NCBI GenBank assembly: GCA_964016885.1
Contig: OZ024746.1
Coordinates: 49,352,001 to 49,416,000 of the forward strand
Direction: 5' to 3'
Length of the DNA: 64,000 bases
Source: Eledone cirrhosa
Lineage: Eukaryota
The position numbers and the translations under genes are program-made. Within the stretch, counting starts at the first letter, position 1, and each line of letters begins with the position of its first letter. The notes below the pieces were generated by a model, which did not search any database, was not told the DNA's origin, and saw nothing but the letters and a program-made list of their open reading frames with translations. This document shows positions 35,030 through 64,000 of the stretch, piece after piece.

Positions 35030-35055
35030 TTGTTGTTGTTGTTGTTGTTGTTGAT

Positions 35056-35087
<32 letters not shown>

Positions 35088-35088
35088 A
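35030..35088. repeat. (GTT)n and (GAT)n microsatellites
   Basis: Direct inspection. Confidence 0.9.
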
Positions 35089-36168: not shown

Positions 36169-36423
36169 ATTATTTATATATAAATGAACGTAAATAATGA
36201 AAATAACGAATATTGCTTTTCATATAAATCTTTTATTTATTTTCATAGGAAACAGCTGGAAGGACGGCACATGTTATATGCGTCCTATTTCAATTATATG
36301 GTTTTGAATAATAAAGTTATACGTTCTGGACCAGTTAAAATGTAAATTCTGCGTATGAAGATCTTTATAGATTCTCACCTCTCTCTTTCGTAAATTCTCT
36401 TTTATTCTGTCTTTCATTCACCT

Positions 36424-36597
<174 letters not shown>

Positions 36598-37041
36598 TCC
36601 TTCCATCACTTTCTTAATTCTAAATTCGATTACGATTTTTTTTCATTTTTAATTGAACGTGATATTATAAAATCGTCCCTTTGGAAAACGATCAAAGGTC
36701 TCTTCCCTATTATGCAATCGATTTCTCCCATCTAAAACTTCAAGAAGAAAATCTATAATAGGAACATCATCTGCGTATTTGAAAAGAGACATGATTGAAA
36801 CAGTTGTGTTGGTTTGATCTTCGATTGTCCCACAGGAGTTACTATTGTAAACGTACTGGGAATTACAGCTTCTTCTCTATATCAACACAGTCGTATTCCA
36901 TGTAAAACATTACATTACCAGAGAGGAAAATATATGAGAAAATATCATTGATTTGTTAAAATAAAGCTAAAGCTAGAAGTATCTATTACTTTCAATCTTT
37001 ATTTCCGACAAGAGATTTTTGCATTTAATGTGTGTTTCAAA

Positions 37042-37085
<44 letters not shown>

Positions 37086-37561
37086 AAAATATGGATTGAG
37101 GAAGGCGAGGCTGTGTGGTTACTGATAATGAGTGTTAGATTGTAAGGCGATACACACACACACAAATATATATATATATATATATATATTCATAAGGATA
37201 TATATGTATATATATTTAGACATAGTCACAGATACATATATGAGTGTGACTACCTTCCACGGTGTGGCTCAATGAGAAAATTAATTAAGCAAATAATTAT
37301 TAATCAGAGCTATATAAAATTATAGACAGTCAGACAAAAAAATTATAGACATCGAACAGTCAGACAAAATATATCCAATTTTTCTTCTCCTTAACTAGAT
37401 AAATAATAACTTAAACGGAGCTAAGTTTAAAATGTAACTTCGAAGAAATAGCAGATAAATGTCACAGACTATCACTTGTGAGATAAAATTTACCCAGTCT
37501 TTCTTCTTAGCCAGTAGAAATTAACTAGACAAATAATCAATTAAACGGAGCTAAGTCTAAT

Positions 37562-37605
37562 ATGCCATTAAAATATAAATATGATGACTGAAATGCCATT
37601 AAAAT
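37562..37605 (-). repeat. Inverted copy of the 40-bp satellite monomer outside the array
   Basis: ATGCCATTAAAATATAAATATGATGACTGAAATGCCATTAAAAT is the reverse complement of array sequence with a short internal deletion. Confidence 0.9.
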
Positions 37606-37656
37606 TTAATGCAAGTTTGAAGAAAAAATGTATATAAACTTTACAGAAATGTTTCT

Positions 37657-37748
37657 AATCCCGACTATCGATAGTTAGTTTCGCTCGTACTTTGTGGATA
37701 TGTCCAATCCTGGTATAATCCATGAGGTTTCGAGCTTCTCAAGGGACT
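37657..37748 (-). ncRNA. Type I hammerhead ribozyme, U3-A8 core variant, extended stem II
   Basis: Minus strand: AGTCCC [I] TTGAGAA GCTCG [II] 43 nt CGAGC [II'] GAAA CTA [III] ACTATCGA TAG [III'] TC^ GGGATT [I']. Predicted cleavage between 37663 and 37662. Confidence 0.8.
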
Positions 37749-37780
37749 CCCTCAGTATGACAAAAATTTCTACAGTGATC

Positions 37781-40700
37781 GCCATTTCTGTCAAACATCT
37801 CATTATATTTATATTTCAATGGCATTTATGTCAAAGATCTCATCATATTTATATTTTAATTGCATTTATGTCAAGAATGTCATCATATTTATATTCTTAT
37901 GGCATTTCTGTCAAAATATCTCATCATATTTATATTTTAATGGCATTTATGTCAAACGTCATGATATTTATATTTTAATGGCAGTTATGTCAAAAATGTC
38001 ATCGTATTTATATTTTAATGGCATTTCTGTCAAAAATCTCATCATATTTATATTTTAATAGAATTTCAGTTAAAAGTCTCATCATATTTATATTTTAATG
38101 GCATTTTTGTCAAAAATCTCATCGTATTTATATTTTAATGGCGTATCGCTTAAAAATCTAATCATATTCATATTTAAATGGCATTTCTGTCAAAAATCTC
38201 ATCATATTTATATTTTAATGGTTTGCCTCTCAAAAATATTATCATATTTATATTTTAATGGTATTTCTGTCAACAATCTCATCATATTTATATTTTAATG
38301 ATATTTTTGTAAGAAAATTTCTTCCTATTTATATTTTAATGACATTTCTGTCAGAAATATCATCATATTTATATTTTAATGGCGTTTCTGCCAAGAATAG
38401 CATCATATCCATATTCTTATGGCATTTCTGTCAAAATATCACATCATATTTATATTTTAATGGTATTTATGTCAAAAATGACAACATATATGTTAATGGC
38501 AATCATGTCAAAATCTCATGATGTTTATATTTTAATGGCATTTCAGTCAGAAATCTTAATTGTATTTCTGTGAAAGTTCTCATCATATTTATATTTTAAT
38601 GGCATTTCTGCAAAAATGTCATCATATTTATATTTTAATGGCATTTTTGCAGAAATAAATTATCACTGTATTTATATTTTCATGGCATTTTTTTTCAAAA
38701 GATTTCACCATATAAAATATTTTAATGGTATTTCTGTAAAGCATATCATCGTATTTATATTTTAATGGCAATTCTTTCAAAAATATCATCATCTTTATAT
38801 TTTATTAGGTTTTCTGTCAAAAACCTCATCATATTTATATTTAATGGTATTTCTGTCAAACATGTCATTATAGTTATATTTTATTGGCAATTCTGTCAAA
38901 AATCTCAACATGTTTATATTTTAATTATATTTCAGTCAGAAATCTCACCATATTTATATTTTAATAGTATTTCTGTCAAATTTCCAGCATATTTATATTT
39001 TAATGGGATTTATGTCAAAATCTCATAATATTTATATTTTTATAGCATTTCTGTCAAATCTTCATTATATTTATATTTTAATGACAGTTCTGTCACAAAT
39101 CTCATCAGTATATTTTAATGGCATTTCTGTCAACCATATCATCATATAAAATATTTTAATGGCATTTCTGTAAAAAAATATAATCATATCTTATGTTTTA
39201 ATGGCATATATGTCAAAAATATCATCATATTTATATTTTAATGGTATTTCTGTCAAAAATGTTCATCATATTTATATTTTAATGGCAATTATTTCAAAAA
39301 TATTATCATCTTTATATTTTATTACGTTTTCTGTCAAAAATATCATCATATTTATATTTTATTAGGTTTTCGATCAAAAATTTCATCATATTCATATTTT
39401 AAATGCATTTCTGTCAAAGATTTCATTATATTTATATTTTTATGGCATTTCTGTCAAAATATCTCATCATATTTATATTTTAATGGCATTTATGTCAAAA
39501 ATGTCAACATATATATATGTTAATGATAGTTATGTCAAAAATCTCATGATGTTTATACTTTAATGGCATTTCAGTCAGAAATCTCATCATATTCAAAGTT
39601 CTCATAATATTTATATTTTAATGACATTTCTGCAAAAATGTCATCGTATTTATATTTTAATGGCATTTTTTTGGAAGATTTCACCATATAAAATATTTTA
39701 ATGGCATTTCTGTAAAACATATCATCATATTTATGTTTTAATGGCATCTCTGTCAAAAATATCAACATGTTTATATCTTAATGGCATTTCTATCGAAAAT
39801 CTCATAGTATTTATATTTTAATAGCATGTCTCTTTAAATTCTTATCATATTTATATTTAAATGGCATTTCTTTCAAAAATCTCTTCATATTTATATTTTA
39901 ATGATATTTTTGTAAAAGAATTTCTTCCTATATATATTTTAATGACATTTCTGTCAGAAATCTCATCATATTTCCATTTTAATGACATTTCTGTCAAAAA
40001 TCTCATCATATTTATATTTTAATGGTATTTCTGTCAAAAATGTCAACATATATACATGTTAATGGTAATTATGTTAAAAATCTCATGATGTTTATATTTT
40101 AATTGCATTTCAGCAAGAAATCTCATCATATTTATATTTTAATGGTATTTCAGTCAAATTTCTCTTCATATTTATATTTTAATTGCATTTTTGCAAAAAT
40201 ATCATCGTATTTATATTTTAATGGCATTTTTTTTCAAGAGACTTCAACATATAAAATATTTTAATGGCATTTCTGTAAAACATATCATCATATTTATATT
40301 TTAATGGCATTTATGTCAAAAATCTCATCATATTTATATTTTAATAGCAATTCTTTCGAAAATATCATCATCTTTATATTTTATTAGGTTTTCGTTCAAA
40401 AGCCTCATCATATTTATATTTTAATGGTATTTCTGTCAAAAATCTCATCATATTTTTATTTTAATAGAATTTCACTTAAAAGTCTCATCATATTTATATT
40501 TTAATGGCATTTCTGTCAAGAATAGCATCATATTCATATTCTTATGGCATTTCTGTCAAAATATCACATCATATTTATATTTTAATGGTATTTATGTCAA
40601 AAATGACAACATATATGTTAATGGCAATTATGTCGAAATCTCATGATGTTTATATTTTAATGGCATTTCAGTCAGAAATCTCATCATATTTATATTTTAA

Positions 40701-43700
40701 TTGTATTTCTGTGAAAGTTCTCATCATATTTATATTTTAATGGCATTTCTGCAAAAATGTCATCATATTTATATTTTAATGGCATTTTTGCAGAAATAAA
40801 TTATCACTGTATTTATATTTTTATGGCATTTTTTTCAAAAGATTTCACCATATAAAATATTTTAATGGTATTTCTGTAAAGCATATCATCGTATTTATAT
40901 TTTAATGGCAATTCTTTCAAAAATATTATCATCTTTATATTTTATTTGGTTTTCTGTCAAAAACCTCATCATATTTATATTTAATTGTATTTCTGTCAAA
41001 CATGTCATTATAGTTATATTTTATTGGCAATTCTGTCAAAAATCTCTTCATGTTTATATTTTAATTATATTTCAGTCAGAAATCTCACCATATTTATATT
41101 TTAATAGTATTCTGTCAAATTTCCAGCATATTTATATTTTAATGGGATTTATGTCAAAATCTCATATTTTTTATATTTTTATAGCATTTCTGTCAAATCC
41201 TCATCATATTTATATTTTAATGACAGTTTTGTCACAAATCTCATCAGTATATTTTAATGGCATTTCTGTCAACCATATCATCATATAAAATATTTTAATG
41301 GCATTTCTGTAAAAAATATAATCATATCTTATGTTTTAATGGCATATATGTCAAAAATATCATCATATTTCTATTTTAATGGTATTTCTGTCAAAAATGT
41401 TCATCATATTTATATTTTAATGGCAACTATTTCAAAAATATTATCATCTTTATATTTTATTAAGTTTTCTGTCAAAAACCTCATCATATTTATATCTTAA
41501 TGGTATTTCTGTCAAAAATATAATCATATTTTTATTTTAATAGAATTTCTGTTAATAGTCTCATCATATTTATATTTTATTAGATTTTCGATCAAAAATT
41601 TCATCATATTCATATTTTAAATGCATTTCTGTCAAATATTTCATTATATTTATATTTCAGTGGCATTTCTCTCATGAATATCATCATATTTATATTCGTA
41701 TGGCATTTCTGTCAAAATATCTCATCATATTTATATTTTAATGGCATTTATGTCAAAAATGTCACCATATATATATGTTAATGGCAGTTATGTAAAAAAT
41801 CTCCTGATGTTTATATTTTAATGGCATTTCTGTCAGAAATCTCATCATATTCAAAGTTCTCATAATATTTATATTTTAATGGCATTTTTGCAAAAATATC
41901 ATCGTATTTATATTTTAATGGCATTTTTTTTTAAAGATTTCACCATATAAATATTTTAATGGCATTTCTGTAAAACATATCATCATATTTATGTTTTAAT
42001 GGCATCTCTGTCAAAAATATCAACATGTTTATATCTTAATGGCAGTTCTATCAAAAATCTCATCGTATTTATATTTTAATAGCATGTCTCTTTAAATTCT
42101 TATCATATTTATATTTAAATGGCATTTCTTTCAAAAATCTCTTCATATTTATATTTTAATGATATTTTTGTAAAAGAATTTCTTCCTATATATATTTTAA
42201 TGACATTTCTGTCAGAAATCTCATCATATTTCTATTTTAATGACATTTCTGTCAAAAATCTCATCATATTTATATTTTAATGGTATTTCTGTCAAAAATC
42301 TCAACATATATATATGTTAATGGTAATTATGTTAAAAATCTCATGATGTTTATAATTTAATTGCATTTCAGCAAGAAATCTCATCATATTTATATTTTAA
42401 TGGTATTTCTGTCAAAGTTCTCTTCATATTTATATTTTAATTGCATTTTTGCAAAAATATCATCTTATTTATACTTTAATGGCATTTTTTTTTGAAGAGA
42501 TTTCAACATATAAAATATTTTAATGGCATTTCTGTAAAACATATCATTATATTTATATTTTAATGGCATTTATGTCAAAAATCTCATCATATTTATATTT
42601 TAATAGCAATTCTTTCGAAAATATCATCATCCTTATATTTTATTAGGTTTTCGTTCAAAAGCCTCACCATATTTATATTTTAATGGTATTTCTGTCAAAA
42701 TCTCATCATATTTATATTTTAATAGCTATTCTTTCGAAAATATCATCATCTTTATATTTGATTAGGTTTTCGTTCAAAAGCCTCATCATATTTATATTTT
42801 AATGGTATTTCTGTCAAAAATCTCATCATATTTATATTTTAATGGTTTTCCTGTCAAAAATATTATCATATTTATATTTTAATGGCATTTCTGTCAACAA
42901 TCTCATCATATTTATATTTTTATGACATTTCTCTCAAAAATCTCATCATATTTATATTTTAAAGGCATTTCTGTAAAGAATATCATCATATTCATATTCT
43001 TATGTCATTTCTGTCAAAATATCTTCACATATTTATATTTTACTGGTATTTATGTCAAAAATGTCACCATATATATATGTTAATGGCAATTATGTCAAAA
43101 ATCTCCTAATGTTTATATTTTAATGGCATTTCAGTCAGAAATCTCTTTATATTCAAAGTTCTCATAATATTTATAATTTAATCCCATTTCTGCAAAAATA
43201 TCATCGTATTTATATTTTAATGGCATTATTTTTTCAAAAGATTTCACCATATGAAATATTTTAATGGCAATTCTTCCAAAAATATCATCATCTTTATATT
43301 TTATTAGGTTTTTTGTCAAAAATGTCATTATATTTATATTTTAGTGGCAATTCTGTCAGAAATCTCATCATGTTTATATTTTAATGATATTTCAGTCAGA
43401 AATCCCACCATATTTATATTTTCATAGTATTTATGTCAAAGTTCTGATCATATTTATATTTTAATTGCATTTTTGCAAAAATATCATCTTATTTATACTT
43501 TAATGGCATTTTTTTTTGAAGAGATTTCAACATATAAAATATTTTAATGGCATTTCTGTAAAACATATCATTATATTTATATTTTAATGGCATTTATGTC
43601 AAAAATCTCATCATATTTATATTTTAATAGCAATTCTTTCGAAAATATCATCATCCTTATATTTTATTAGGTTTTCGTTCAAAAGCCTCACCATATTTAT

Positions 43701-46700
43701 ATTTTAATGGTATTTCTGTCAAAATCTCATCATATTTATATTTTAATAGCTATTCTTTCGAAAATATCATCATCTTTATATTTGATTAGGTTTTCGTTCA
43801 AAAGCCTCATCATATTTATATTTTAATGGTATTTCTGTCAAAAATCTCATCATATTTATATTTTAATGGTTTTCCTGTCAAAAATATTATCATATTTATA
43901 TTTTAATGGCATTTCTGTCAACAATCTCATCATATTTATATTTTTATGACATTTCTCTCAAAAATCTCATCATATTTATATTTTAAAGGCATTTCTGTAA
44001 AGAATATCATCATATTCATATTCTTATGTCATTTCTGTCAAAATATCTTCACATATTTATATTTTACTGGTATTTATGTCAAAAATGTCACCATATATAT
44101 ATGTTAATGGCAATTATGTCAAAAATCTCCTAATGTTTATATTTTAATGGCATTTCAGTCAGAAATCTCTTTATATTCAAAGTTCTCATAATATTTATAA
44201 TTTAATCCCATTTCTGCAAAAATATCATCGTATTTATATTTTAATGGCATTATTTTTTCAAAAGATTTCACCATATGAAATATTTTAATGGCAATTCTTC
44301 CAAAAATATCATCATCTTTATATTTTATTAGGTTTTTTGTCAAAAATGTCATTATATTTATATTTTAGTGGCAATTCTGTCAGAAATCTCATCATGTTTA
44401 TATTTTAATGATATTTCAGTCAGAAATCCCACCATATTTATATTTTCATAGTATTTATGTCAAAGTTCTGATCATATTTATATTTTAATGGGATTTATGT
44501 CAAACATGTTATCATATTTATATTTTAATGGCATTTCTGTAAACAATCTCATCATATTTATATTTTAATGGTATTTTTGTGAACAATCTCATCGTATTTA
44601 TATTTTAATGGAATGTCTCTCAAAATCTCATCGTATTTATATTTTAAAGGCATTTCTGTCAAAAATCTCATCATATTTATATTTTAATGGTTTTCCTGTC
44701 ATAAATATTATCATACTTATATTTTAATGGTATTTCTGTCAAAAATCTCATCATATTTATATTTTAATGGTTTTCCTGTTAAAAATATTATCATATTTCT
44801 ACTTTAATGGCATTTATGTCAACAATCTCATCATATTTATATTTTTATGACATTTCTCTCAAAAATCTCATCATATTTATATTTTAAAGGCATTTCTGTA
44901 AAGAATATCATCATATTCATATTCTTATTTCATTTCTGTCAAAATTTCTCATCATATTTATATTTTACTGGTATTTATGTCAAAAATGTCACCATATATA
45001 TATGTTAATGGCAATTATGTCAAAAATCTCCTAATGTTTATATTTTAATGGCATTTCAGTCAGAAATATCATCATATTTATATTTTAATGGTATTTGTGT
45101 GAACAATCTCATCGTATTTATATTTTAATGGAATGTCTCTCAAAATCTCATCGTATTTATATTTTAAAGGCATTTCTGTCAAAAATCTCATCATATTTAT
45201 ATTTTAATGGTTTTCCTGTCAGAAATATTATCATACTTATATTTTAATGGCATTTCTGCAAGAATATCATCATATTCATATTCTTATAGCATTTCTGTCA
45301 AAATATCTCATCATATTTATATTTTAATGGCATTTATATCAAAAACGTCAGCATATAAATATGTTAATGGCAATTATGTCAAAGATCTCATGAGGTTTAT
45401 ATTTTAATTGCATTTCAGCCAGAAATCTCATCATATTTATATTTTAATGGTATTTCTGTAAAACATATCATCATATTTATATTTTAAAAGTCTCTTCATA
45501 TTTATATTTTAAAGGCATTTCTGTGAAAAATCTCACCGTATTTTTATTTTAATGGTATTTCTGCCAAAATGTCATCTTAATGGAATTTCTCGAAAAGATT
45601 TCATCATATAAAATATCATCGTATTTATATTTTTCATGGCATGTTTTTTCAAAAGATATCAATATATAAAATATTTTAAAGGCATTTCAGTCAGAAATCT
45701 TATCATTTTTACATTTTAATAGTATTTCTGTCAAACTTCTCGTCATATTTATATCTTAATGGCATTTTTTTTAAAAAAGATTTCAACATATAAGATATTT
45801 TAATGGCATTTCTGTAAAACATATCATCATATTTATATTTTAATAGAATTTCAGTCAGAAATCTTATCATTTTTACATTTTAATAGTATTTCTGTCAAAC
45901 TTCTCGTCATATTTATATTTTAATGGAATTTCTGCAAAAATGTCATCGTATTTTCTTCAAACGATTTCACCATATAAAATATTTTAATGGCATTTCTGTA
46001 AAACATATTATTATATTTATATTTTAATGGCATGTCTGTCAAAAATATCATCATATTTATATTTTAATGGTATTTATGTCAAAAAATCTCAGCATATTTA
46101 TATTTTAATGGCAATTCTTTCAAAAATATCATCATCTTTATATTTAAATGGCATTTCTGTCAAAAATCTCATCATATTTATTTTTTAATGATTTTCTTGT
46201 CAAAAATATCATATTTATATTTTAATGACATTTTTGTAAGAAAATATCTTACTATATTTTCTTATATTTTAATGCCATTTATGTCAAAAATGTCAACATA
46301 TATATATGTTAATGGCAATTATGTCAAAATGTCATGATGTTTATATTTTAAAGGCATTTCAGTCAGAAATCTCATCATATTTATATTTTAATTGTATTTC
46401 TGTCAAAGTTCTCATCATATTTATATTTTATTGTCATTTTTGCAAAAATGTCATCGTATTTATATTTTAATTGCAGTTTTCAAAAGATTTCATCTCATAA
46501 ATTATCACTGTATTTATATTTTAATGGAATTTTCTTTTTAAGATTTCACCGTATAAAATATTTTAATGGTATTTCTGTAAAACATATAATGATATTTATG
46601 TTTCAATGGCATCTCTTTTCAAAAATATTATCATATTTACATTTTAATGGCATTTATGTCAACAATCTCATCATATTCATATTTTAATGCCAATTCTGTC

Positions 46701-49700
46701 AAAAATATCATATTTATATTTTATTAAATTTTCTGTCAAAAATATCATCATATTTATATTTTATTAAGTTTTCTGTCAAAAATATCATCATATTTATATT
46801 TTAATGACATTCCTTTCAAAAGTCTCATCATATTTATATTTTAATGACATTTCTGTCAAAAATCTGACCATATTTATATTTTTGTGGCATTTCTGTCAAA
46901 AATGACAACATATACATATATAAATGTCAATTATGTCAAGAATCTCATGATGTTTATATTTTGATGGCATTTCAGTCACAAATCTCATCATATTTATATT
47001 TTAAGGGTATTTCTCTCAAAGTTCTCATCTCATCTATATTTTAATGGCATTTTTTTCAAAAGATTTCATCATATAAAATATCATCGTATTTATATTTTAA
47101 TGGCATGTTTTTCAAAATATTGCCCCATGTAAAATATTTAATGGCATTTCTGTAAAATATATCATCATATTTATGTTTTAATGGCATCTATGTCAAAAAT
47201 ATCATTATATTTATATTTGAATGGAATTTCTGCAAAAATGTCATCGTATTTATATTTTAATGGTATTTTTTTCCAAAGATTTCATTATATATATATCATC
47301 GTACTTATATTTTAAAGGCATTTAAAAAAAAAATATTTCACCATTTCAAATATTTTAATTGCAATTCTGTAAAACATCATCATATTTATATTTTAATGGC
47401 ATTTCTGTCAAAAATATCATCATATTTATATTTTAATGATTTTCTTGTCAAAAATGTCATAATATTTTTAATGCCATTTTTGTAAGAAAATATCTCACTA
47501 TTTATATTTTAATGATATAAATCTCATCATATTTATATTTTAGTGACATTGCTGTCAAAAGTCTCGTCATATTTATATTTTAATGGCATTTCTGTCAAGA
47601 ATATCATCATATTCATATTTTTATGGCATTTCCCTCAAAATAACTCATCATATTTATATTTTAATGGCATTTATGTCAAAAATGTCAACATATATATATA
47701 TGTTAATTGCAATTATGTCAAAAATCTCATGATGTTTATATTTTAATGACATTTCTGTCAAAAATCTCATCATATATATATTTTAATGCCAATTCTTTCG
47801 AAAATATCATTATCTTTATATTTTATTAGGTTTTCGGTCATAAACCTCATCATATTTATATTTCAATGTTATTTCTGTCAAAAATCGAACATATTTATAT
47901 TTTAATAGAATTTCTGTTAATAGTCTCATCATATTTATATTTTAATGGCATTTCAGTCAGAAATCTCATCATATTTATATTTTAATTGTATTTCTGTCAA
48001 AATTCTCATCATATTTATATTTTAATGGCATATCTGCAAAAATGTCATCGTATTTATATTTTAATGGCATTTTTCCAAATTATTTCATCATATAAAATAT
48101 CGTATTTATATTTTAATGGCATTTTTTTCGAAAGATTTCACCATATAAAATATTTTAAGTGCATTTCTGTAAAACATATCATCATATTTATGTCATTATG
48201 CCATCTCTTTCAAAAATATCTCATCATATTTATATTTTAATTGCTTTTGTGTCAAAAATCTCATCTTATTTATAATGGCAATTCTTTCAAAAATATCATC
48301 ATATTTATATTTTAATGGCATTTCTGTCAATAATATCATCATATTTATATTTTATTAAGTTTTCTGTCAAAAATATCATCATATATATATGTTAATGGCA
48401 TTCCTGTCAGATATCTCATCATATTTATATTTGAATGGCATTTCTGTCAATAATATCATCATATTCATATTCTTATGGCATTTCTGTCAAATTATCTCAT
48501 CATATTTATATGTTAATGGCATTTATGTCAAAAATGTCAACATATATATATATGTTAATTGCAATTATGTCAATAATCTCATGATGTTTATATTTTAATG
48601 GCATTTCGGTCAGAAATCTCATCATATTTATATTTTCAAAGCATTTCTGAGAAAAAATCTCATCGTATTTATATTTTAATTGTATTTCTGTCAAAATCTC
48701 ATCGTATTTATATTTTAATGGCATTTCTTTAAAAGATTTGATCATATAAAATATCATCGTATTTATATTTTAATGGTATTTTTTCCCAAAAGATTTCACC
48801 ATATAAAATATTTTAATGGCATTTCTGTAAAACATATCATCATATTCATATTTTAATGGCATTTCTGTTAACAATCTCATCATATTTATAATGTTATGGC
48901 ATTTCTGTACAAATATCTCATCATATTTATATTCTAATGGCATTTATGTCAAAAATGTCAAGATATATATATGTTAATGGCAATTATGTCAAAAATCTCA
49001 TGATATTTATATTTGAATGGCATTTCAGTCAGAAATCTCATCATATTTATATTTTAATTGTATTTCTGTCAAAGTTCTCGTCATATTTATATTTGAATGG
49101 CATTTCTGCGAAAATGTCACCGTATTTATATTTTAATGGCATTTTTTTTTATATCTCATCATTTCAAATATTTTAATGGCATTTCTGTAAAACATCATAT
49201 TTATATTTTAATGGCATTTCTGTCAAGAATATCATCATATTCATATTTTTATGGCATTTCTCTCAAAATAACTCATCATATTTATATTTTAATGGCATTT
49301 ATGTCAAAAATGTCAACATATATATATATTTTAATTGCAATTATGTCAAAAATCTCATGATGTTTATATTTTAATGACATTTCTGTCAAAAATCTCATCA
49401 TATATATATTTTAATGCCAATTCTTTCGAAAATATCATTATCTTTGTATTTTATTAGGTTTTCGGTCATAAACCTCATCATATTTATATTTCAATGTTAT
49501 TTCTGTCCAAAATCGAACATATTTATATTTTAATAGAATTTCTGTTAATAGTCTCATCATATTTATATTTTAATGGCATTTCAGTCAGAAATCTCATCAT
49601 ATTTATATTTTAATTGTATTTCTGTCAAAATTCTCATCATATTTATATTTTAATGGCATTTCCGTCAAAAATCTCATCTCATCGTATTTATATTTTAATG

Positions 49701-52700
49701 ATTTTCTTGTCAAAAATTTCATAATTTTAATGACATTTTTGTAAGAAAATATTTTCCTATTTATATTTTAATGACATAAATCTCATCATATTTATATTTT
49801 AATGACATTTTTGTCAAAAATCTCATCATATTTATATTTGAATGGCATTTCTGTCAATAATATCATCATATTCATATTCTTATGGCATTTCTGTCAAATT
49901 ATCTCATCATATTTATATGTTAATGGCATTTATGTAAAAAATGTCAACATATATATATATGTTAATTGCAATTATGTCAATAATCTCATGATGTTTATAT
50001 TTTAATGGCATTTCGGTCAGAAATCTCATCATATTTATATTTTCAAAGCATTTCTGAGAAAAAATCTCATCGTATTTATATTTTAATTGTATTTCTGTCA
50101 AAATCTCATCGTATTTATATTTTAATGGCATTTCTTTAAAAGATTTGATCATATAAAATATCATCGTATTTATATTTTAATGGCATTTTTTCCCAAAAGA
50201 TTTCACCATATAAAATATTTTAATGGCATTTCTGTAAAACATATCATCATATTCATATTTTAATGGCATTTCTGTCAACAATCTCATCATATTTATAATG
50301 TTATGGCATTTCTGTACAAATATCTCATCATATTTATATTCTAATGGCATTTATGTCAAAAATGTCAAGATATATATATGTTAATGGCAATTATGTCAAA
50401 AATCTCATGATATTTATATTTGAATGGCATTTCAGTCAGAAATCTCATCATATTTATATTTTAATTGTATTTCTGTCAAAGTTCTCGTCATATTTATATT
50501 TGAATGGCATTTCTGCAAAAATGTCACCGTTTTTATATTTTAATGGCATTTTTTTTTATATCTCATCATTTCAAATATTTTAATGGCATTTCTGTAAAAC
50601 ATCATATTTATATTTTAATGGTATTTCTGTCAAGAATATCATCATATTTATATTTTTATGGCATTTCTCTCAAAATAACTCATCATATTTATATTTCAAT
50701 GGCATTTATGTCAAAAATGTCAACATATATATATATTTTAATTGCAATTATGTCAAAAATCTCATGATGTTTATATTTTAATGACATTTCTGTCAAACAT
50801 CTCAGCATATATATATTTTAATGCCAATTCTTTCGAAAATATCATTATCTTTATATTTTATTAGGTTTTCGGTCATAAACCTCATCATATTTATATTTCA
50901 ATGTTATTTCTGTCAAAAATCGAACATATTTATATTTTAATAGAATTTCTGTTAATAGTCTCATCATATTTATATTTTAATGGCATTTCAGTCAGAAATC
51001 TCATCATATTTATATTTTAATTGTATTTCTGTCAAAATTCTCATCATATTTATATTTTAATGGCATTTCTGTCAAAAATCTCATCTCATCGTATTTATAT
51101 TTTAATGATTTTCTTGTCAAAAATTTCATATTTTTAATGACATTTTTGTAAGAAAATATTTTCCTATTTATATTTTAATGACATAAATCTCATCATATTT
51201 ATATTTTAATGACATTTTTGTCAAGAATATCATCATATTCATATTCTTATGGCATTTCTGTCAAAATATATCATCATATTTATATTTTAATGGCATTTAT
51301 GTCAGAAATGTCAACATATATATATATGTTAATGGCAATTATGTCAAAAATGTCAACATATATATATATGTTGATGGCAATTATGACAATAATCTCATGA
51401 TGTTTATATTTTAATGGCATTTCAGTCAGAAATCTCATCATATTTATATTTTATTAGGTTTTCGGTCAAAAACCTCATCATATTTATATTTCAATGGTAT
51501 TTCTGTCAAAAATCTAATCATATTTATATTTTAATAGAATTTCTGTTAATAGTCTCATCATATTTATATTTTAATGGCATTTCAGTCAGAAATCTCCTCA
51601 TATTTATATTTTAATTGTATTTCAGTCAAAATTCTCATCATATTTATATTTTAATGGCATATCTGCAAGAATGTCTTCGTATTTATATTATAATGGCATT
51701 TTTTTTCAAAAGATTTCACCATATAAAATATTTTAAGTGCATTTCTGTAAAACATATCATCATATTTATGTTTTAATGCCATCTCTGTCAAAAATATTAT
51801 CATATTTATATTTTAATGGCTTTTGTGTCAAAATTCTTATCATATTTATATTTTAATGGCAATTCTTTCAAAAATATCATCATATTTAGATTTTATTAAA
51901 TTTTGTGTCCAAAGTATCATCATATTTTTATTTTATTAAGTTTTCTGTCAAAAATATCATCATATTTATATTTTAATGGCATTCCTGTCAATAATATCAT
52001 CATATTCATATTCTTATGGCATTTCTGTCAAATTATCTCAACATATTTATATTTTAATGGCATTTATGTCAAAAATGTCAACATATATATATATGTTAAT
52101 GGCAATTATGTCATTAATCTCATGATGTTTATATTTTAATTGCATTTCAGTCAGAAATCTCATCATATTTATATTTTAAAGGCATTTCTGTGAAAAATCT
52201 CATCGTATTTATATATTAATGGTATTTCTGCCAAAATGTCATCGTATTTATTTTTTAATGGCATTTCTTTAAAAGATTTCATCATATAAAATATCATCGT
52301 ATTTATATTTTAATGGCATTTTTTAAAATAAGATTTCACAATATAAAATATTTTAATGGCACTTCTGTAAAACATATCATCATATTCATATTTTAATTGC
52401 ATTTCTGTCAAAAATATCATCATATTTATATTTTAATGGTTTTCCCGGCATTCAATGGCATTTCTCTCAACAATCTCATCATATTTATATTGTTATGGCA
52501 TTTCTGTACAAATATCTCATCATATTTATATTCTAATGGCAATTATGTCAAAAATCTCATGATGTTTATATTTGAATGGCATTTCAGTCAGAAATCTCAT
52601 CATATTTATATTTTAATTGTATTTCTGTCAAAGTTCTCCTCATATTTATATTTGAATGGCATTTCTGCAAAAATGTCATCGTATTTATATTTTAATGGTA

Positions 52701-55700
52701 TATTTTCCAAAGATTTCATTATATAAATATAAAAAAGTTTTCACCATTTCAAATATTTTAATGGCATTTCTGTAAAACATCATCATATTTATATTTTAAT
52801 GGCATTTCTGTCAAAAATCTCATCATATTTATATATTAATGATTTTCTTGTCATAAATGTCATAATATTTTTAATGATTTTTTTTAAGAAAATATCTTCC
52901 TATTTATATTTTAATGATATACATCTCATCATATTTATATTTTAATGACATTTATGTCAAGAATATCATCATATTCATATTCTTATGGCATTTCTGTCAA
53001 AATATCTCATCATATTTATATGTTAATGGTATTTATGTCAAAAACGTCAACATATATATATGTTAATGGAAATTATGTCAAAAATCTCATGATGTTTATA
53101 TTTTAATTGCATTTCTGTCACAAACCTCATTATATTTATATTTTAAAGCCAATACTTTCAAAAATATCATCATATTTATATTTTAATGATTTTCTTGTCA
53201 AAAATGTCATAATATTTTTAATGCCATTTTTGTAAGAAAATATCTCACTATTTATATTTTAATGATATAAATCTCATCATATTTATATTTTAGTGACATT
53301 GCTGTCAAAAGTCTCATCATATTTATATTTTAATGGCATTTCTGTCAAGAATATCATCATATTCATATTTTTATGGCATTTCCCTCAAAATAACTCATCA
53401 TATTTATATTTTAATGGCATTTATGTCAAAAATGTCAACATATATATATATGTTAATTGCAATTATGTCAAAAATCTCATGATGTTTATATTTTAATGAC
53501 ATTTCTGTCAAAAATCTCATCATATCTATATTTTAATGCCAATTCTTTCGAAAATATCATTATCTTTATATTTTATTAGGTTTTCGGTCATAAACCTCAT
53601 CATATTTATATTTCAATGTTATTTCTGTCAAAAATCGAACATATTTATATTTTAATAGAATTTCTGTTAATAGTCTCATCATATTTATATTTTAATGGCA
53701 TTTCAGTCAGAAATCTCATCATATTTATATTTTAATTGTATTTCTGTCAAAATTCTCATCATATTTATATTTTAATGGCATATCTGCAAAAATGTCATCG
53801 TATTTATATTTTAATGGCATTTTTCCAAATTATTTCATCATATAAAATATCGTATTTATATTTTAATGGCATTTTTTTCGAAAGATTTCACCATATAAAA
53901 TATTTTAAGTGCATTTCTGTAAAACATATCATCATATTTATGTCATTATGCCATCTCTTTCAAAAATATCTCATCATATTTATATTTTAATTGCTTTTGT
54001 GTCAAAAATCTCATCTTATTTATAATGGCAATTCTTTCAAAAATATCATCATATTTATATTTTAATGGCATTTCTGTCAATAATATCATCATATTTATAT
54101 TTTATTAAGTTTTCTGTCAAAAATATCATCATATATATATGTTAATGGCATTCCTGTCAGATATCTCATCATATTTATATTTGAATGGCATTTCTGTCAA
54201 TAATATCATCATATTCATATTCTTATGGCATTTCTGTCAAATTATCTCATCATATTTATATGTTAATGGCATTTATGTCAAAAATGTCAACATATATATA
54301 TATGTTAATTGCAATTATGTCAATAATCTCATGATGTTTATATTTTAATGGCATTTCGGTCAGAAATCTCATCATATTTATATTTTCAAAGCATTTCTGA
54401 GAAAAAATCTCATCGTATTTATATTTTAATTGTATTTCTGTCAAAATCTCATCGTATTTATATTTTAATGGCATTTCTTTAAAAGATTTGATCATATAAA
54501 ATATCATCGTATTTATATTTTAATGGCATTTTTTCCCAAAAGATTTCACCATATAAAATATTTTAATGGCATTTCTGTAAAACATATCATCATATTCATA
54601 TTTTAATGGCATTTCTGTCAACAATCTCATCATATTTATAATGTTATGGCATTTCTGTACAAATATCTCATCATATTTATATTCTAATGGCATTTATGTC
54701 AAAAATGTCAAGATATATATATGTTAATGGCAATTATGTCAAAAATCTCATGATATTTATATTTGAATGGCATTTCAGTCAGAAATCTCATCATATTTAT
54801 ATTTTAATTGTATTTCTGTCAAAGTTCTCGTCATATTTATATTTGAATGGCATTTCTGCAAAAATGTCACCGTATTTATATTTTAATGGCATTTTTTTTT
54901 ATATCTCATCATTTCAAATATTTTAATGGCATTTCTGTAAAACATCATATTTATATTTTAATGGTATTTCTGTCAAGAATATCATCATATTCATATTTTT
55001 TTATTGCATTTCTCTCAAAATAACTCATCATATTTATATTTTAATGGCATTTATGTCAAAAATGTCAACATATATATATATTTTAATTGCAATTATGTCA
55101 AAAATCTCATGATGTTTATATTTTAATGACATTTCTGTCAAAAATCTCATCATATATATATTTTAATGCCAATTCTTTCGAAAATATCATTATCTTTATA
55201 TTTTATTAGGTTTTCGGTCATAAACCTCATCATATTTATATTTCAATGTTATTTCTGTCAAAAATCGAACATATTTATATTTTAATAGAATTTCTGTTAA
55301 TAGTCTCATCATATTTATATTTTAATGGCATTTCAGTCAGAAATCTCATCATATTTATATTTTAATTGTATTTCTGTCAAAATTCTCATCATATTTATAT
55401 TTTAATGGCATTTCTGTCAAAAATCTCATCTCATCGTATTTATATTTTAATGATTTTCTTGTCAAAAATTTCATATTTTTAATGACATTTTTGTAAGAAA
55501 ATATTTTCCTATTTATATTTTAATGACATAAATCTCATCATATTTATATTTTAATGACATTTTTGTCAAGAATATCATCATATTCATATTCTTATGGCAT
55601 TTCTGTCAAAATATATCATCATATTTATATTTTAATGGCATTTATGTCAAAAATGTCAACATATATATATATGTTAATGGCAATTATGTCAAAAATGTCA

Positions 55701-58700
55701 ACATATATATATATCTTGATGGCAATTATGACAATAATCTCATGATGTTTATATTTTAATGGCATTTCAGTCAGAAATCTCATCATATTTATATTTTATT
55801 AGGTTTTCGGTCAAAAACCTCATCATATTTATATTTCAATGGTATTCCTGTCAAAAATCTAATCATATTTATATTTTAATAGAATTTCTGTTAATAGTCT
55901 CATCATATTTATATTTTAATGGCATTTCAGTCAGAAATCTCATCATATTTATATTTTAATTGTATTTCTGTCAAAATTCTCATCATATTTATATTTTAAT
56001 GGCATATCTGCAAGAATGTCTTCGTATTTATATTATAATGGCATTTTTTTTCAAAAGATTTCACCATATAAAATATTTTAAGTGCATTTCTGTAAAACAT
56101 ATCACCATATTTATGTTTTAATGCCATCTCTGTCAAAAATATTATCATATTTATATTTTAATGGCTTTTGTGTCAAAATTCTTATCATATTTATATTTTA
56201 ATGGCAATTCTTTCAAAAATATGATCATATTTAGATTTTATTAAATTTTGTGTCCAAAGTATCATCATATTTTTATTTTATTAAGTTTTCTGTCAAAAAT
56301 ATAATCATATTTATATTTTAATGGCATTCCTGTCAATAATATCATCATATTCATATTCTTATGGCATTTCTGTCAAATTATCTCAACATATTTATATTTT
56401 AATGGCATTTATGTCAAAAATGTCAACATATATATATATGTTAATGGCAATTATGTCATTAATCTCATGATGTTTATATTTTAATTGCATTTCAGTCAGA
56501 AATCTCATCATATTTATATTTTAAAGGCATTTCTGTGAAAAATCTCATCGTATTTATATATTAATGGTATTTCTGCCAAAATGTCATCGTATTTATTTTT
56601 TAATGGCATTTCTTTAAAAGATTTCATCATATAAAATATCATCGTATTTATATTTTAATGGCATTTTTTAAAAAAAGATTTCACAATATAAAATATTTTA
56701 ATGGCACTTCTGTAAAACATATCATCATATTCATATTTTAATTGCATTTCTGTCAAAAATATCATCATATTTATATTTTAATGGTTTTCCCGGCATTCAA
56801 TGGCATTTCTCTCAACAATCTCATCATATTTATATTGTTATGGCATTTCTGTACAAATATCTCATCATATTTATATTCTAATGGCAATTATGTCAAAAAT
56901 CTCATGATGTTTATATTTGAATGGCATTTCAGTCAGAAATCTCATCATATTTATATTTTAATTGTATTTCTGTCAAAGTTCTCCTCATATTTATATTTGA
57001 ATGGCATCTCTGCAAAAATGTCATCGTATTTATATTTTAATGGTATATTTTCCAAAGATTTCATTATATAAATATAAAAAAGTTTTCACCATTTCAAATA
57101 TTTTAATGGCATTTCTGTAAAACATCATCATATTTATATTTTAATGGCATTTCTGTCAAAAATCTCATCATATTTATATATTAATGATTTTCTTGTCATA
57201 AATGTCATAATATTTTTAATGATTTTTTTTAAGAAAATATCTTCCTATTTATATTTTAATGATATACATCTCATCATATTTATATTTTAATGACATTTAT
57301 GTCAAGAATATCATCATATTCATATTCTTATGGCATTTCTGTCAAAATATCTCATCATATTTATATGTTAATGGCATTTATGTCAAAAACGTCAACATAT
57401 ATATATGTTAATGGAAATTATGTCAAAAATCTCATGATGTTTATATTTTAATTGCATTTCTGTCAAAAACCTCATTATATTTATATTTTAAAGCCAATAC
57501 TTTCAAAAATATCATCATATTTATATTTTAATGATTTTCTTGTCAAAAATGTCATAATATTTTTAATGCCATTTTTGTAAGAAAATATCTCACTATTTAT
57601 ATTTTAATGATATAAATCTCATCATATTTATATTTTAGTGACATTGCTGTCAAAAGTCTCATCATATTTATATTTTAATGGCATTTCTGTCAAGAATATC
57701 ATCATATTCATATTTTTATGGCATTTCCCTCAAAATAACTCATCATATTTATATTTTAATGGCATTTATGTCAAAAATGTCAACATATATATATATGTTA
57801 ATTGCAATTATGTCAAAAATCTCATGATGTTTATATTTTAATGACATTTCTGTCAAAAATCTCATCATATATATATTTTAATGCCAATTCTTTCGAAAAT
57901 ATCATTATCTTTATATTTTATTAGGTTTTCGGTCATAAACCTCATCATATTTATATTTCAATGTTATTTCTGTCAAAAATCGAACATATTTATATTTTAA
58001 TAGAATTTCTGTTAATAGTCTCATCATATTTATATTTTAATGGCATTTCAGTCAGAAATCTCATCATATTTATATTTTAATTGTATTTCTGTCAAAATTA
58101 TCATCATATTTATATTTTAATGGCATATCTGCAAAAATGTCATCGTATTTATATTTTAATGGCATTTTTCCAAATTATTTCATCATATAAAATATCGTAT
58201 TTATATTTTAATGGCATTTTTTTCGAAAGATTTCACCATATAAAATATTTTAAGTGCATTTCTGTAAAACATATCATCATATTTATGTCATTATACCATC
58301 TCTTTCAAAAATATCTCATCATATTTATATTTTAATTGCTTTTGTGTCAAAAATCTCATCTTATTTATAATGGCAATTCTTTCAAAAATATCATCATATT
58401 TATATTTTAATGGCATTTCTGTCAATAATATCATCATATTTATATTTTATTAAGTTTTCTGTCAAAAATATCATCATATATATATGTTAATGGCATTCCT
58501 GTCAGATATCTCATCATATTTATATTTGAATTGCATTTCTGTCAATAATATCATCATATTCATATTCTTATGGCATTTCTGTCAAATTATCTCATCATAT
58601 TTATATGTTAATGGCATTTATGTCAAAAATGTCAACATATATATATATGTTAATTGCAATTATGTCAATAATCTCATGATGTTTATATTTTAATGGCATT

Positions 58701-61700
58701 TCGGTCAGAAATCTCATCATATTTATATTTTCAAAGCATTTCTGAGAAAAAATCTCATCGTATTTATATTTTAATTGTATTTCTGTCAAAATCTCATCGT
58801 ATTTATATTTTAATGGCATTTCTTTAAAAGATTTGATCATATAAAATATCATCGTATTTATATTTTAATGGTATTTTTTCCCAAAAGATTTCACCATATA
58901 AAATATTTTAATGGCATTTCTGTAAAACATATCATCATATTCATATTTTAATGGCATTTCTGTCAACAATCTCATCATATTTATAATGTTATGGCATTTC
59001 TGTACAAATATCTCATCATATTTATATTCTAATGGCATTTATGTCAAAAATGTCAAGATATATATATGTTAATGGCAATTATGTCAAAAATCTCATGATA
59101 TTTATATTTGAATGGCATTTCAGTCAGAAATCTCATCATATTTATATTTTAATTGTATTTCTGTCAAAGTTCTCGTCATATTTATATTTGAATGGCATTT
59201 CTGCGAAAATGTCACCGTATTTATATTTTAATGGCATTTTTTTTATATCTCATCATTTCAAATATTTTAATGGCATTTCTGTAAAACATCATATTTATAT
59301 TTTAATGGATTTTCTGTCAAGAATATCATCATATTCATATTTTTATGGCATTTCTCTCAAAATAACTCATCATATTTATATTTTAATGGCATTTATGTCA
59401 AAAATGTCAACATATATATATATTTTAATTGCAATTATGTCAAAAATCTCATGATGTTTATATTTTAATGACATTTCTGTCAAAAATCTCATCATATATA
59501 TATTTTAATGCCAATTCTTTCGAAAATATCATTATCTTTATATTTTATTAGGTTTTCGGTCATAAACCTCATCATATTTATATTTCAATGTTATTTCTGT
59601 CAAAAATCGAACATATTTATATTTTAATAGAATTTCTGTTAATAGTCTCATCATATTTATATTTTAATGGCATTTCAGTCAGAAATCTCATCATATTTAT
59701 ATTTTAATTGTATTTCTGTCAAAATTCTCATCATATTTATATTTTAATGGCATTTCCGTCAAAAATCTCATCTCATCGTATTTATATTTTAATGATTTTC
59801 TTGTCAAAAATTTCATATTTTTAATGACATTTTTGTAAGAAAATATTTTCCTATTTATATTTTAATGACATAAATCTCATCATATTTATATTTTAATGAC
59901 ATTTTTGTCAAAAATCTCATCATATTTATATTTGAATGGCATTTCTGTCAATAATATCATCATATTCATATTCTTATGGCATTTCTGTCAAATTATCTCA
60001 TCATATTTATATGTTAATGGCATTTATGTCAAAAATGTCAACATATATATATATGTTAATTGCAATTATGTCAATAATCTCATGATGTTTATATTTTAAT
60101 GGCATTTCGGTCAGAAATCTCATCATATTTATATTTTCAAAGCATTTCTGAGAAAAAATCTCATCGTATTTATATTTTAATTGTATTTCTGTCAAAATCT
60201 CATCGTATTTATATTTTAATTGTATTTCTGTCAAAATCTCATCGTATTTATATTTTAATGGCATTTTTTCCCAAAAGATTTCACCATATAAAATATTTTA
60301 ATGGCATTTCTGTAAAACATATCATCATATTCATATTTTAATGGCATTTCTGTCAACAATCTCATCATATTTATAATGTTATGGCATTTCAGTACAAATA
60401 TCTCATCATATTTATATTCTAATGGCATTTATGTCAAAAATGTCAAGATATATATATGTTAATGGCAATTATGTCAAAAATCTCATGATATTTATATTTG
60501 AATGGCATTTCAGTCAGAAATCTCATCATATTTATATTTTAATTGTATTTCTGTCAAAGTTCTCGTCATATTTATATTTGAATGGCATTTCTGCTAAAAC
60601 GTCACCGTATTTATATTTTAATGGCATTTTTTTTTATATCTCATCATTTCAAATATTTTAATGGCATTTCTGTAAAACATCATATTTATATTTTAATGGT
60701 ATTTCTGTCAAGAATATCATCATATTCATATTTTTATGGCATTTCTCTCAAAATAACTCATCATATTTATATTTCAATGGCATTTATGTCAAAAATGTCA
60801 ACATATATATATATTTTAATTGCAATTATGTCAAAAATCTCATGATGTTTATATTTTAATGACATTTCTGTCAAAAATCTCATCATATATATATTTTAAT
60901 GCCAATTCTTTCGAAAATATCATTATCTTTATATTTTATTAGGTTTTCGGTCATAAACCTCATCATATTTATATTTCAATGTTATTTCTGTCAAAAATCG
61001 AACATATTTATATTTTAATAGAATTTCTGTTAATAGTCTCATCATATTTATATTTTAATGGCATTTCAGTCAGAAATCTCATCATATTTATATTTTAATT
61101 GTATTTCTGTCAAAATTCTCATCATATTTATATTTTAATGGCATTTCTGTCAAAAATCTCATCTCATCGTATTTATATTTTAATGATTTTCTTGTCAAAA
61201 ATTTCATATTTTTAATGACATTTTTGTAAGAAAATATTTTCCTATTTATATTTTAATGACATAAATCTCATCATATTTATATTTTAATGACATTTTTGTC
61301 AAAAATCTCATCATATTTATATTTGAATGGCATTTCTGTCAATAATATCATCATATTCATATTCTTATGGCATTTCTGTCAAATTATCTCATCATATTTA
61401 TATGTTAATGGCATTTATGTAAAAAATGTCAACATATATATATATGTTAATTGCAATTATGTCAATAATCTCATGATGTTTATATTTTAATGGCATTTCG
61501 TTCAGAAATCTCATCATATTTATATTTTCAAAGCATTTCTGAGAAAAATCTCATCGTATTTATATTTTAATTGTATTTCTATCAAAATCTCATCGTATTT
61601 ATATTTTAATGGCATTTCTTTAAAAGATTTGATCATATAAAATATCATCGTATTTATATTTTAATGGCATTTTTTCCCAAAAGATTTCACCATATAAAAT

Positions 61701-64000
61701 ATTTTAATGGCATTTCTGTAAAAGATATCATCATATTCATATTTTAATGGCATTTCTGTCAACAATCTCATCATATTTATAATGTTATGGCATTTCTGTA
61801 CAAATATCTCATCATATTTATATTCTAATGGCATTTATGTCAAAAATGTCAAGATATATATATGTTAATGGCAATTATGTCAAAAATCTCATGATATTTA
61901 TATTTGAATGGCATTTCTGTCAATAATATCATCATATTCATATTCTTATGGCATTTCTGTCAAATTATCTCATCATATTTATATGTTAATGGCATTTATG
62001 TCAAAAATGTCAACATATATATATATGTTAATTGCAATTATGTCAATAATCTCATGATGTTTATATTTTAATGGCATTTCGGTCAGAAATCTCATCATAT
62101 TTATATTTTCAAAGCATTTCTGAGAAAAAATCTCATCGTATTTATATTTTAATTGTATTTCTGTCAAAATCTCATCGTATTTATATTTTAATGGCATTTT
62201 TTCCCAAAAGATTTCACCATATAAAATATTTTAATGGCATTTCTGTAAAAGATATCATCATATTCATATTTTAATGGCATTTCTGTCAACAATCTCATCA
62301 TATTTATAATGTTATGGCATTTCTGTACAAATATCTCATCATATTTATATTCTAATGGCATTTATGTCAAAAATGTCAAGATATATATATGTTAATGGCA
62401 ATTATGTCAAAAATCTCATGATATTTATATTTGAATGGCATTTCAGTCAGAAATCTCATCATATTTATATTTTAATTGTATTTCTGTCAAAGTTCTCGTC
62501 ATATTTATATTTGAATGGCATTTCTGCAAAAATGTCACCGTATTTATATTTTAATGGCATTTTTTTTTATATCTCATCATTTCAAATATTTTAATGGCAT
62601 TTCTGTAAAATATCATATTTATATTTTAATGGTATTTCTGTCAAGAATATCATCATATTCATATTTTTATGGCATTTCTCTCAAAATAACTCATCATATT
62701 TATATTTTAATGGCATTTATGTCAAAAATGTCAACATATATATATATTTTAATTGCAATTATGTCAAAAATCTCATGATGTTTATATTTTAATGACATTT
62801 CTGTCAAAAATCTCATCATATATATATTTTAATGCCAATTCTTTCGAAAATATCATTATCTTTATATTTTATTAGGTTTTCGGTCATAAACCTCATCATA
62901 TTTATATTTCAATGTTATTTCTGTCAAAAATCGAACATATTTATATTTTAATAGAATTTCTGTTAATAGTCTCATCATATTTATATTTTAATGGCATTTC
63001 AGTCAGAAATCTCATCATATTTATATTTTAATTGTATTTCTGTCAAAATTCTAATCATATTTATATTTTAATGGCATTTCCGTCAAAAATCTCATCTCAT
63101 CGTATTTACATTTTAATGATTTTCTTGTCAAAAATTTCATATTTTTAATGACATTTTTGTAAGAAAATACTTTCCTATTTATATTTTAATGACATAAATC
63201 TCATCATATTTATATTTTAATGACATTTTTGTCAAAAATCTCATCATATTTATATTTGATTGGCATTTCTGTCAATAATATCATCATATTCATATTCTTA
63301 TGGCATTTCTGTCAAATTATCTCATCATATTTATATGTTAATGGCATTTATGTCAAAAATGTCAACATATATATATATGTTAATTGCAATTATGTCAATA
63401 ATCTCATGATGTTTATATTTTAATGGCATTTCGGTCAGAAATCTCATCATATTTATATTTTCAAAGCATTTCTGAGAAAAAATCTCATCGTATTTATATT
63501 TTAATTGTATTTCTGTCAAAATCTCATCGTATTTATATTTTAATGGCATTTTTTCCCAAAAGATTTCACCATATAAAATATTTTAATGGCATTTCTGTAA
63601 AACATATCATCATATTCATATTTTAATGGCATTTCTGTCAACAATCTCATCATATTTATAATGTTATGGCATTTCTGTACAAATATCTCATCATATTTAT
63701 ATTCTAATGGCATTTATGTCAAAAATGTCAAGATATATATATGTTAATGGCAATTATGTCAAAAATCTCATGATATTTATATTTGAATGGCATTTCTGCA
63801 AAAATGTCACCGTATTTATATTTTAATGGCATTTTTTTTTATATCTCATCATTTCAAATATTTTAATGGCATTTCTGTAAAAAATCATATTTATATTTTA
63901 ATGGTATTTCTGTCAAGAATATCATCATATTCATATTTTTATGGCATTTCTCTCAAAATAACTCATCATATTTATATTTTAATGGCATTTATGTCAAAAA
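37781..64000. repeat. Satellite DNA array, 40-bp monomer ATGGCATTTCTGTCAAAAATCTCATCATATTTATATTTTA, continuing beyond the window
   Basis: ATCATATTTA-type motif recurs at 38041, 38081, 38121, 38161, 38201, 38241 and 38281 (period 40). Diverged monomers are arranged in near-identical kb-scale blocks. Confidence 0.98.

Follow-up and report, generated by a model that had tools for sequence, protein, structure and literature searches.

A hammerhead ribozyme motif lies on the minus strand of a 64,000-nt stretch of the Eledone cirrhosa genome (contig OZ024746.1, positions 49,352,001 to 49,416,000; the whole stretch is called the window here), and its predicted cut at 37663/37662 falls 120 nt from the first monomer of a 40-bp satellite array (37783). 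This neighbourhood raises the question whether the ribozyme acts on satellite transcripts or belongs to an element of its own. A sequence-only reading of the locus had suggested that the ribozyme might define the 3' end of a satellite RNA, or that the satellite might be cargo of a non-autonomous Penelope/retrozyme-like element. In our judgement it is quite probable that the motif sits in a truncated, roughly 6%-decayed copy of a ~690-nt repeat, likely copied from RNA by a Penelope reverse transcriptase/endonuclease and likely in contact with the satellite by chance. The features on which this judgement draws are collected in Table 1.

Table 1. Features of the locus in window coordinates.
Feature	Position	Strand	Basis or remark
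Hammerhead, type I, U3-A8 core, N7 = G at 37738	37657..37748	minus	sequence, descriptor, fold
Predicted cleavage site after GUC, C17 = 37663	37662..37663	minus	sequence and hammerhead consensus
Helix III: 12-nt palindrome (37675-37664) and 4-nt duplication	37664..37679	minus	copy alignment
Upstream segment, predicted pairing partner of the 3' strands in helices I and III	37749..37773	minus	folding only
5'-truncated copy of the dispersed ~690-nt non-coding unit	37188..37783	minus	genome search, alignment
47-nt satellite fragment, inverted relative to the array, inside the element downstream of the ribozyme	37561..37607	minus	alignment
Proximal 3' end (site A, unit ~417)	37310..37322	minus	where most family copies stop; the window copy reads through
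(TA)n tract at the element 3' end, usual family target	37166..37189	.	sequence
40-bp AT-rich satellite, 655 copies in the window, ~40 kb further beyond	37783..64000	plus	neighbour, outside the element

A type I hammerhead with a U3-A8 core

Read on the minus strand, stem I consists of AGUCCC (37748-37743) and GGGAUU (37662-37657), 6 bp with one G.U, and is followed by the core segment UUGAGAA (37742-37736), in which the 3-8 pair is U3-A8. Stem II is GCUCG/CGAGC with the G10.1-C11.1 pair, helix II carries a 43-nt structured extension, and GAAA (37682-37679) leads into stem III, CUA/UAG with an 8-nt loop, next to which stands the GUC triplet. The sequence-only reading had described the three stems, both core segments and the triplet, a C3U/G8A exchange that keeps the 3-8 pair, and a stem II with canonical G10.1-C11.1 and an extension, and each of these was confirmed at its minus-strand position. 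The motif has what defines a type I hammerhead, namely the conserved core (positions 3-9, 12-15.1, 16.1 and 17) with a 3-8 pair and three helices in register (6/5/3 bp), helix I being open-ended.

With a descriptor allowing any 3-8 pair, 37748-37657 was the window's sole match whose stems reached 6/5/3 bp or more, and in 30 second-order Markov simulations (37.8 kb each, both strands) the same stem thresholds gave 0.03 matches per run, and none when G10.1-C11.1 and C17 were included. The hammerhead is the minimum-energy fold of the 95-nt motif alone (-21.7 kcal/mol, ensemble share 0.38). When flanks are added (37650-37755), the minimum-energy structure lacks both stem I and stem III and is no more stable than shuffled sequences (z -1.11; 32 of 200 shuffles fold equally well). 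A search of 30000-45000 against Rfam at E<=1 returned no hammerhead model, the only matches being TA-repeat miRNA noise.

The ribozyme is part of a dispersed ~690-nt unit

The hammerhead is part of a scattered retroelement unit that is separate from the satellite. Searching the genome with 37625-37775 gave 536 candidates, 40 of which were scored and share 85-90% identity with the window copy; the segment upstream yielded 696 candidates, of which 40 were scored or listed, and a 29-nt 3' pattern had 111 exact genome matches, compared with 0 for its reversed control. From these counts and a divergence of ~7%, the copy number would be estimated at several hundred to about a thousand. The window copy begins 7 nt upstream of unit position 1, terminates at the distal 3' end (site B) and is 5.9% substituted relative to the family majority, the family median being 6.9% (127 pieces).

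The unit is circularly permuted, because long copies carry the same sequence upstream of the ribozyme as downstream; its period is 685-691 nt, partial tandems are many, and it contains an internal 110-nt direct repeat. When the majority unit is doubled, its GC content is 35% and its longest ATG-started ORF has 49 codons, and the unit has the make-up by which retrozymes are recognised: non-coding, with one type I hammerhead and GC below 45%. Two complete same-strand ribozymes at unit spacing occur at one of 144 loci (L015), a partial second motif in three more, and the window copy is without a second ribozyme-bearing tandem unit. Contigs from three runs of one sample, whose kind is unrecorded, contain many unit copies and are silent on expression. 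Membership in a non-autonomous Penelope/retrozyme-like element, as suggested from the sequence alone, is supported, and the U3-A8 core was already known. Among the papers listed for octopus hammerheads and cephalopod Penelope ribozymes, none dealt with the ~690-nt family, which Repbase or Dfam may hold.

The neighbouring satellite array

The array, given as 26 kb in the sequence-only reading, measures ~66 kb with two insertions and reaches about C6:49,456,040. Regular adjacency of element copies to the satellite had been set beforehand as a test of their connection, and it is absent: within 1.5 kb of a hammerhead-anchored copy the satellite occurs at the window locus only and is missing at 67 of 67 others. 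It was likewise absent from all 103 mapped 3'-anchored sites and from 58 additional loci, some of which also belong to those sets. The 21-mer spanning the junction, searched with at most one mismatch, occurs once in the genome. Three other satellite loci, 9 kb each, gave no match to the element, and its missing 5' part had no match at the far array end (L198, L199, L200, L203, L204 and L205). Neither a ribozyme in every monomer nor a regular tie to the satellite, either of which would mark a hammerhead satellite, was found here.

That the ribozyme makes the 3' end of a satellite RNA from minus-strand transcripts, or that the satellite is cargo of the element, is therefore very unlikely: the link fails because the satellite is absent at the other copies, the junction is unique and other satellite loci are without the element. 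The geometry would fit satellite processing, as the cut site lies 120 nt from the array with the polarity that a minus-strand read-out would have. Also in its favour, a satellite piece sits inside the element, and the window copy has lost much of an inhibition predicted by folding (1.2 kcal/mol, compared with at least 4.5 in 18 of the 21 others; see below). However, the loci examined hold no second case of adjacency, the window copy is as diverged as the rest of its family, and an unrelated hammerhead element and an LTR retrotransposon also lie in the array. With adjacency absent at all other loci examined, the junction unique and three satellite loci without the element, the proposed role in satellite RNA 3'-end formation and the cargo proposal are both unsupported. 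Incidental cutting of read-through RNA may occur, but it would be no system.

The contact between element and satellite is probably a one-off accident. Insertions in or beside the array are common, as the unrelated hammerhead element and the LTR retrotransposon also landed there. The 47-nt inverted satellite piece was found in no other copy examined and probably arose when, during insertion or repair, copying jumped to nearby DNA as its template.

The unrelated hammerhead element (L203:1580-2320, G000:C6:~49,427,580-49,428,320) has a CUGAUGA core, a 7-bp stem I, a minimal palindromic helix III and an inverted arm, and the LTR retrotransposon (L199:1-5570, G000:C6:49,436,001-49,441,570) interrupts the array over ~5.5 kb; its terminal repeats are direct, and its long frames on the minus strand, read by eye, are gag- and pol-like. 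The satellite itself shows a higher-order repeat of ~4,345 bp, marked by recurring variant monomers, in window 47000-64000. On C4 (L227:2430-6330, G000:C4:~105,726,900-105,730,800) the 40-bp satellite occurs with a related shorter variant in alternating orientations, in a block bounded by ~100-nt inverted terminal sequences and flanked by (TA)n, and on C11 (L226:4140-4830) it forms a short head-to-head pair. The satellite may thus be carried about by another mobile element, of the foldback or Penelope type.

Other repeats in the window

The first part of the window (1-1700) holds fragments of Penelope-like reverse transcriptase and endonuclease frames that are 45-63% identical to the L007 and L029 peptides. 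In 16300-34600, several frames were labelled by eye as LINE-type reverse transcriptases, among them a 1216-aa frame on the minus strand (17581-21228) and an L1-like set on the plus strand (~26500-31800). SINE-like repeat copies at 5893-7620 and 35833-35977 belong to a repeat which we take to be typical of octopus genomes.

Insertion footprints and a probable Penelope link

The manner in which copies begin and end points to the machinery that may have inserted them. The 3' ends of the family are fixed at two points, site A (unit ~417) and site B (unit ~524), 107 nt apart. Among 156 motif matches at site A, 93 run into (TA)n, 41 continue and 22 do otherwise, and the corresponding numbers among 63 matches at site B are 16, 41 and 6, in a sample that was in part picked by a site A pattern. 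The 5' ends, on the other hand, spread over about 900 nt. An inverted arm stands at the 5' junction of 13 of 68 hammerhead-anchored loci (86 before the removal of 18 positional duplicates) and of 21 of 103 3'-anchored sites, a set from which six duplicates and one unmapped anchor were removed, in which one L017 alignment is counted twice and in which a few 5' ends are mis-registered owing to the internal 110-nt repeat. Within one insertion, redundant parts agree at subfamily sites in 64 of 81 direct and 90 of 101 inverted comparisons, compared with 53% between loci, and hence derive mostly from one template or one homogeneous source.

At least 47 of the 103 3'-anchored copies run upstream past the cut site and two start at it (unit 109-110), a number indistinguishable from the local density of 5' ends, so that the insertions carry no genomic sign of in vivo cleavage. 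Among the first loci, 5' ends had seemed to gather at unit -8 to +4; this proved to be an artefact of query selection, with only two of 103 ends falling there in the 3'-anchored set.

The family has the combination expected of insertions mobilised by Penelope, namely 5' truncation, partial tandems, an inverted 5' arm, AT-rich or microsatellite targets and two fixed 3' ends. The EN+ Penelope-like elements described in PMC8557442 are marked by partial tandems, inverted 5' copies, a tail and microsatellite targets, and for one Penelope-like element reverse transcription was reported to start in vitro at two internal sites on uncut RNA (PMC11167929). The unit would share with these elements (PMC8557442; PMC11167929) the 5' truncation, the partial tandems, the inverted 5' copy and the microsatellite targets as well as two internal starts of reverse transcription on an uncut RNA template. 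It differs from them in being without a reverse transcriptase or endonuclease of its own and in the distance between its 3' ends, since 107 nt exceeds the 30-40 nt of the Penelope tail, which weakens the explanation favoured here.

An abundant endonuclease-bearing Penelope-like family is present in the genome (14,611 candidates). In 28 of 30 of its loci (L087-L116) the 3' UTR holds a hammerhead-like minimal motif with a U3-A8 core, about 350-730 nt past the ORF end in most of them; in this motif U faces U where helix II begins at its base, and helix III is a 6-nt palindrome. The unit has no DNA similarity to this family, compared as one family at 30 endonuclease loci, with the exception of L087, where the locus holds a copy of the ~690-nt element. 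As the abundant family is without DNA similarity to the unit, the driver enzyme can be named by kind only.

A further reading takes the unit as the pseudo-LTR or 3' UTR of an autonomous Penelope family whose full-length copies are rare or lost. It would leave the same insertion footprints, the majority of Penelope copies are 5'-truncated (PMC4209133), and the family was sampled in part (40 of 536 and 40 of 696 candidates). However, every long copy, reaching up to a full turn, continues upstream into the 3' half of the unit and never into an ORF. No sense-strand Penelope ORF leads into the unit at the 68 and 58 loci searched, where only weak hits (E~1e-5 to 1e-7) appeared; Pfam returned only a weak RVT_1 match for three neighbouring peptides, and no ORF with reverse transcriptase and GIY-YIG between pseudo-LTRs, as in an autonomous Penelope-like element, was found. 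Two copies on C18, 4.76 kb apart and considered as pseudo-LTRs around an ORF, are the product of a local duplication, and the stretch that separates them contains no Penelope ORF. We regard an autonomous parent as unlikely. Penelope ORF fragments beside L007 and L029 are separate insertions on the opposite strand, 200-700 nt beyond the 3' end of the element, and those on both sides of L030 are separate insertions as well.

The favoured reading, copying of a non-coding unit by a borrowed enzyme, can be put as a sequence of steps. A Penelope enzyme would nick AT-rich DNA, and reverse transcription would start internally on the RNA, either at site A or at site B, ~300 or ~410 nt past the cut site. 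The template would be a circular or tandem uncut RNA that is copied around, which would explain copies longer than one unit in which the cut site is read through. In source elements the ribozyme would cut multi-unit transcripts into monomers, acting as a monomer or as a palindrome dimer, while in the template RNA the upstream segment would keep it mostly off. The window insertion would have landed between the (TA)n tract and the satellite, gaining the inverted 47-nt piece during insertion or repair.

A strand asymmetry among the copies bears on such an RNA stage. On the sense strand A>G exceeds T>C about twofold per site among rare variants (315 vs 222 counts, shared variants being counted repeatedly), and among polymorphic columns A/G outnumbers C/T (27 vs 10, p 0.008). 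The excess might fit editing of an RNA intermediate or a biased reverse transcriptase. It must be weighed lightly, since it shows no avoidance of a 5' G, which ADAR would give, since shared variants were counted repeatedly and since the asymmetry of a Penelope UTR comparator leans the other way.

Apparent selection on the ribozyme across copies

The descriptor is still passed by 22 of the 80 copies that span the motif, the other 58 being broken, as expected for decaying insertions. In a polymorphism set of 108 loci, chosen without regard to their hammerhead sequence, a single column of the 685-nt unit has three alleles, and this is N7 (G22/T20/A12), the one core position that is free to vary. 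Polymorphism is absent from all 40 columns of the core and stems, whereas 36 of 415 background columns show it (one-sided Fisher test, p 0.032 at a 15% threshold; p 0.057 at the stricter 20% threshold). On account of these two patterns, the ribozyme seems to have been under selection in the source elements. At the end of stem I the pair varies from A-U to G.U (63/13 in a gap-placed alignment), and a double change in helix III of L149 preserves both pairing and palindrome. The 12-nt palindromic helix III recurs in a sister family, in which stem I differs and the core of L233 is C3-G8.

The missing Rfam match, the ordinary z-score with flanks and the 58 broken copies would each agree with a chance or long-dead fold that was unselected while the family spread. 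Against this stand a chance rate near zero, the N7 pattern, the structural columns without polymorphism, the covarying sister family and the compensated double change in L149, and we consider such a fold very unlikely.

The sister family, which is older, was seen at L233:1390-1525, L234, L236, L237, L239, L240, L247, L248 and L249. Its helix II is branched and ~90 nt long, L233 folds as a hammerhead (-42.7 kcal/mol), and the family appears permuted with a period near 620 nt.

Palindromic helix III and a predicted upstream clamp

The sequence-only reading had noted a palindrome overlapping loop III and had suggested dimeric cleavage through it. The overlap is real in the window copy, where a 4-nt duplication private to that copy (1 of 80) has displaced the palindrome towards the loop; elsewhere in the family, the 12-nt palindrome and helix III are one and the same. 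A dimer route through a palindromic helix III is described for metazoan hammerheads (PMC4209133), and it fits the family in fold prediction, where helix III can be either a monomer hairpin or a 12-bp intermotif duplex with A15.1-U16.1 in place. It fits the window copy less well, whose best predicted helix III oligomer dimer uses a shifted register that displaces A15.1, and for this reason the window copy, if active at all, is more likely to act as a monomer.

In most copies the segment upstream of the motif is predicted to hold the ribozyme off by pairing with the 3' strands of both helix I and helix III, and two substitutions weaken this pairing in the window copy. For the family majority the modelled cost of reaching the active fold is 0.9 kcal/mol without the upstream segment and 6.3 with it (short context), and 5 of 200 shuffles of the segment raise the cost as much. 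Among 22 intact copies the predicted cost is at least 4.5 kcal/mol in 18 and 1.2 in the window copy; a duplicated L202 copy was left out of the folding. These folds might indicate a self-clamped hammerhead, in which 25 upstream nt imitate the helix I 5' strand and tie up the 3' strands of both helix I and helix III, an idea we put forward tentatively and hold to be doubtful. If true, clamped RNA would stay an uncut template for reverse transcription and would be cut after release by palindrome dimerisation or by a Penelope protein, which would explain how a single RNA serves both as ribozyme substrate and as read-through template. The predicted clamp would allow the way in which such ribozymes are kept inactive to be tested cheaply at the bench.

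Relation to known ribozyme-bearing repeats

Among known systems, the metazoan non-LTR retrozymes share with the unit a non-coding sequence with one type I hammerhead and GC below 45% (PMC7229834; bioRxiv 10.64898/2026.07.22.740005), and also the head-to-tail permutation and the coexistence with Penelope-like elements (PMC7229834). They have been proposed to be non-autonomous Penelope derivatives (PMC7229834; bioRxiv 10.64898/2026.07.22.740005). The unit, at ~690 nt, compares with 150-450 nt for the retrozymes described in PMC7229834 and with family consensus lengths of 51-972 nt in bioRxiv 10.64898/2026.07.22.740005. Unlike retrozymes, it was found almost only as dispersed copies, from sub-unit length to 1.4 units, with no arrays found and no homologous pseudo-LTR. 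Further differences are its U3-A8 core and long helix II, and that it is known from DNA alone. The loop I-loop II tertiary contact of type I hammerheads is absent from mussel retrozyme motifs.

The hammerheads of Penelope pseudo-LTRs, including Schistosoma Cercyon, show the same U3-A8 covariation and conserved G10.1-C11.1 pair, a palindromic, dimer-suited helix III and an occurrence mostly as single dispersed motifs, some of them near each other on opposite strands (PMC4209133). In contrast to the pseudo-LTR motifs described there, the present helix III can close as a monomer (3 bp and A15.1-U16.1, with a 4-nt loop), stem I has 6 bp, no extra base follows A9 and no ORF is attached. Satellite 2 of newts and salamanders (cited in PMC7229834) shares the association of a hammerhead with tandem DNA; its ribozyme is in every monomer, whereas here the 40-bp monomers are without one and a separate element carries it.

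Taken together, these comparisons suggest that the unit works like a non-LTR retrozyme and would be neither an autonomous Penelope-like element nor a hammerhead satellite. A satellite-processing ribozyme would have been a surprise, and what remains is another ribozyme-bearing, non-coding family of Penelope passengers. Its decayed copies appear to record purifying selection on the ribozyme of their source elements, even though uncut RNA would be the template, and within the ribozyme variation between subfamilies is confined to N7 and to loop bases.
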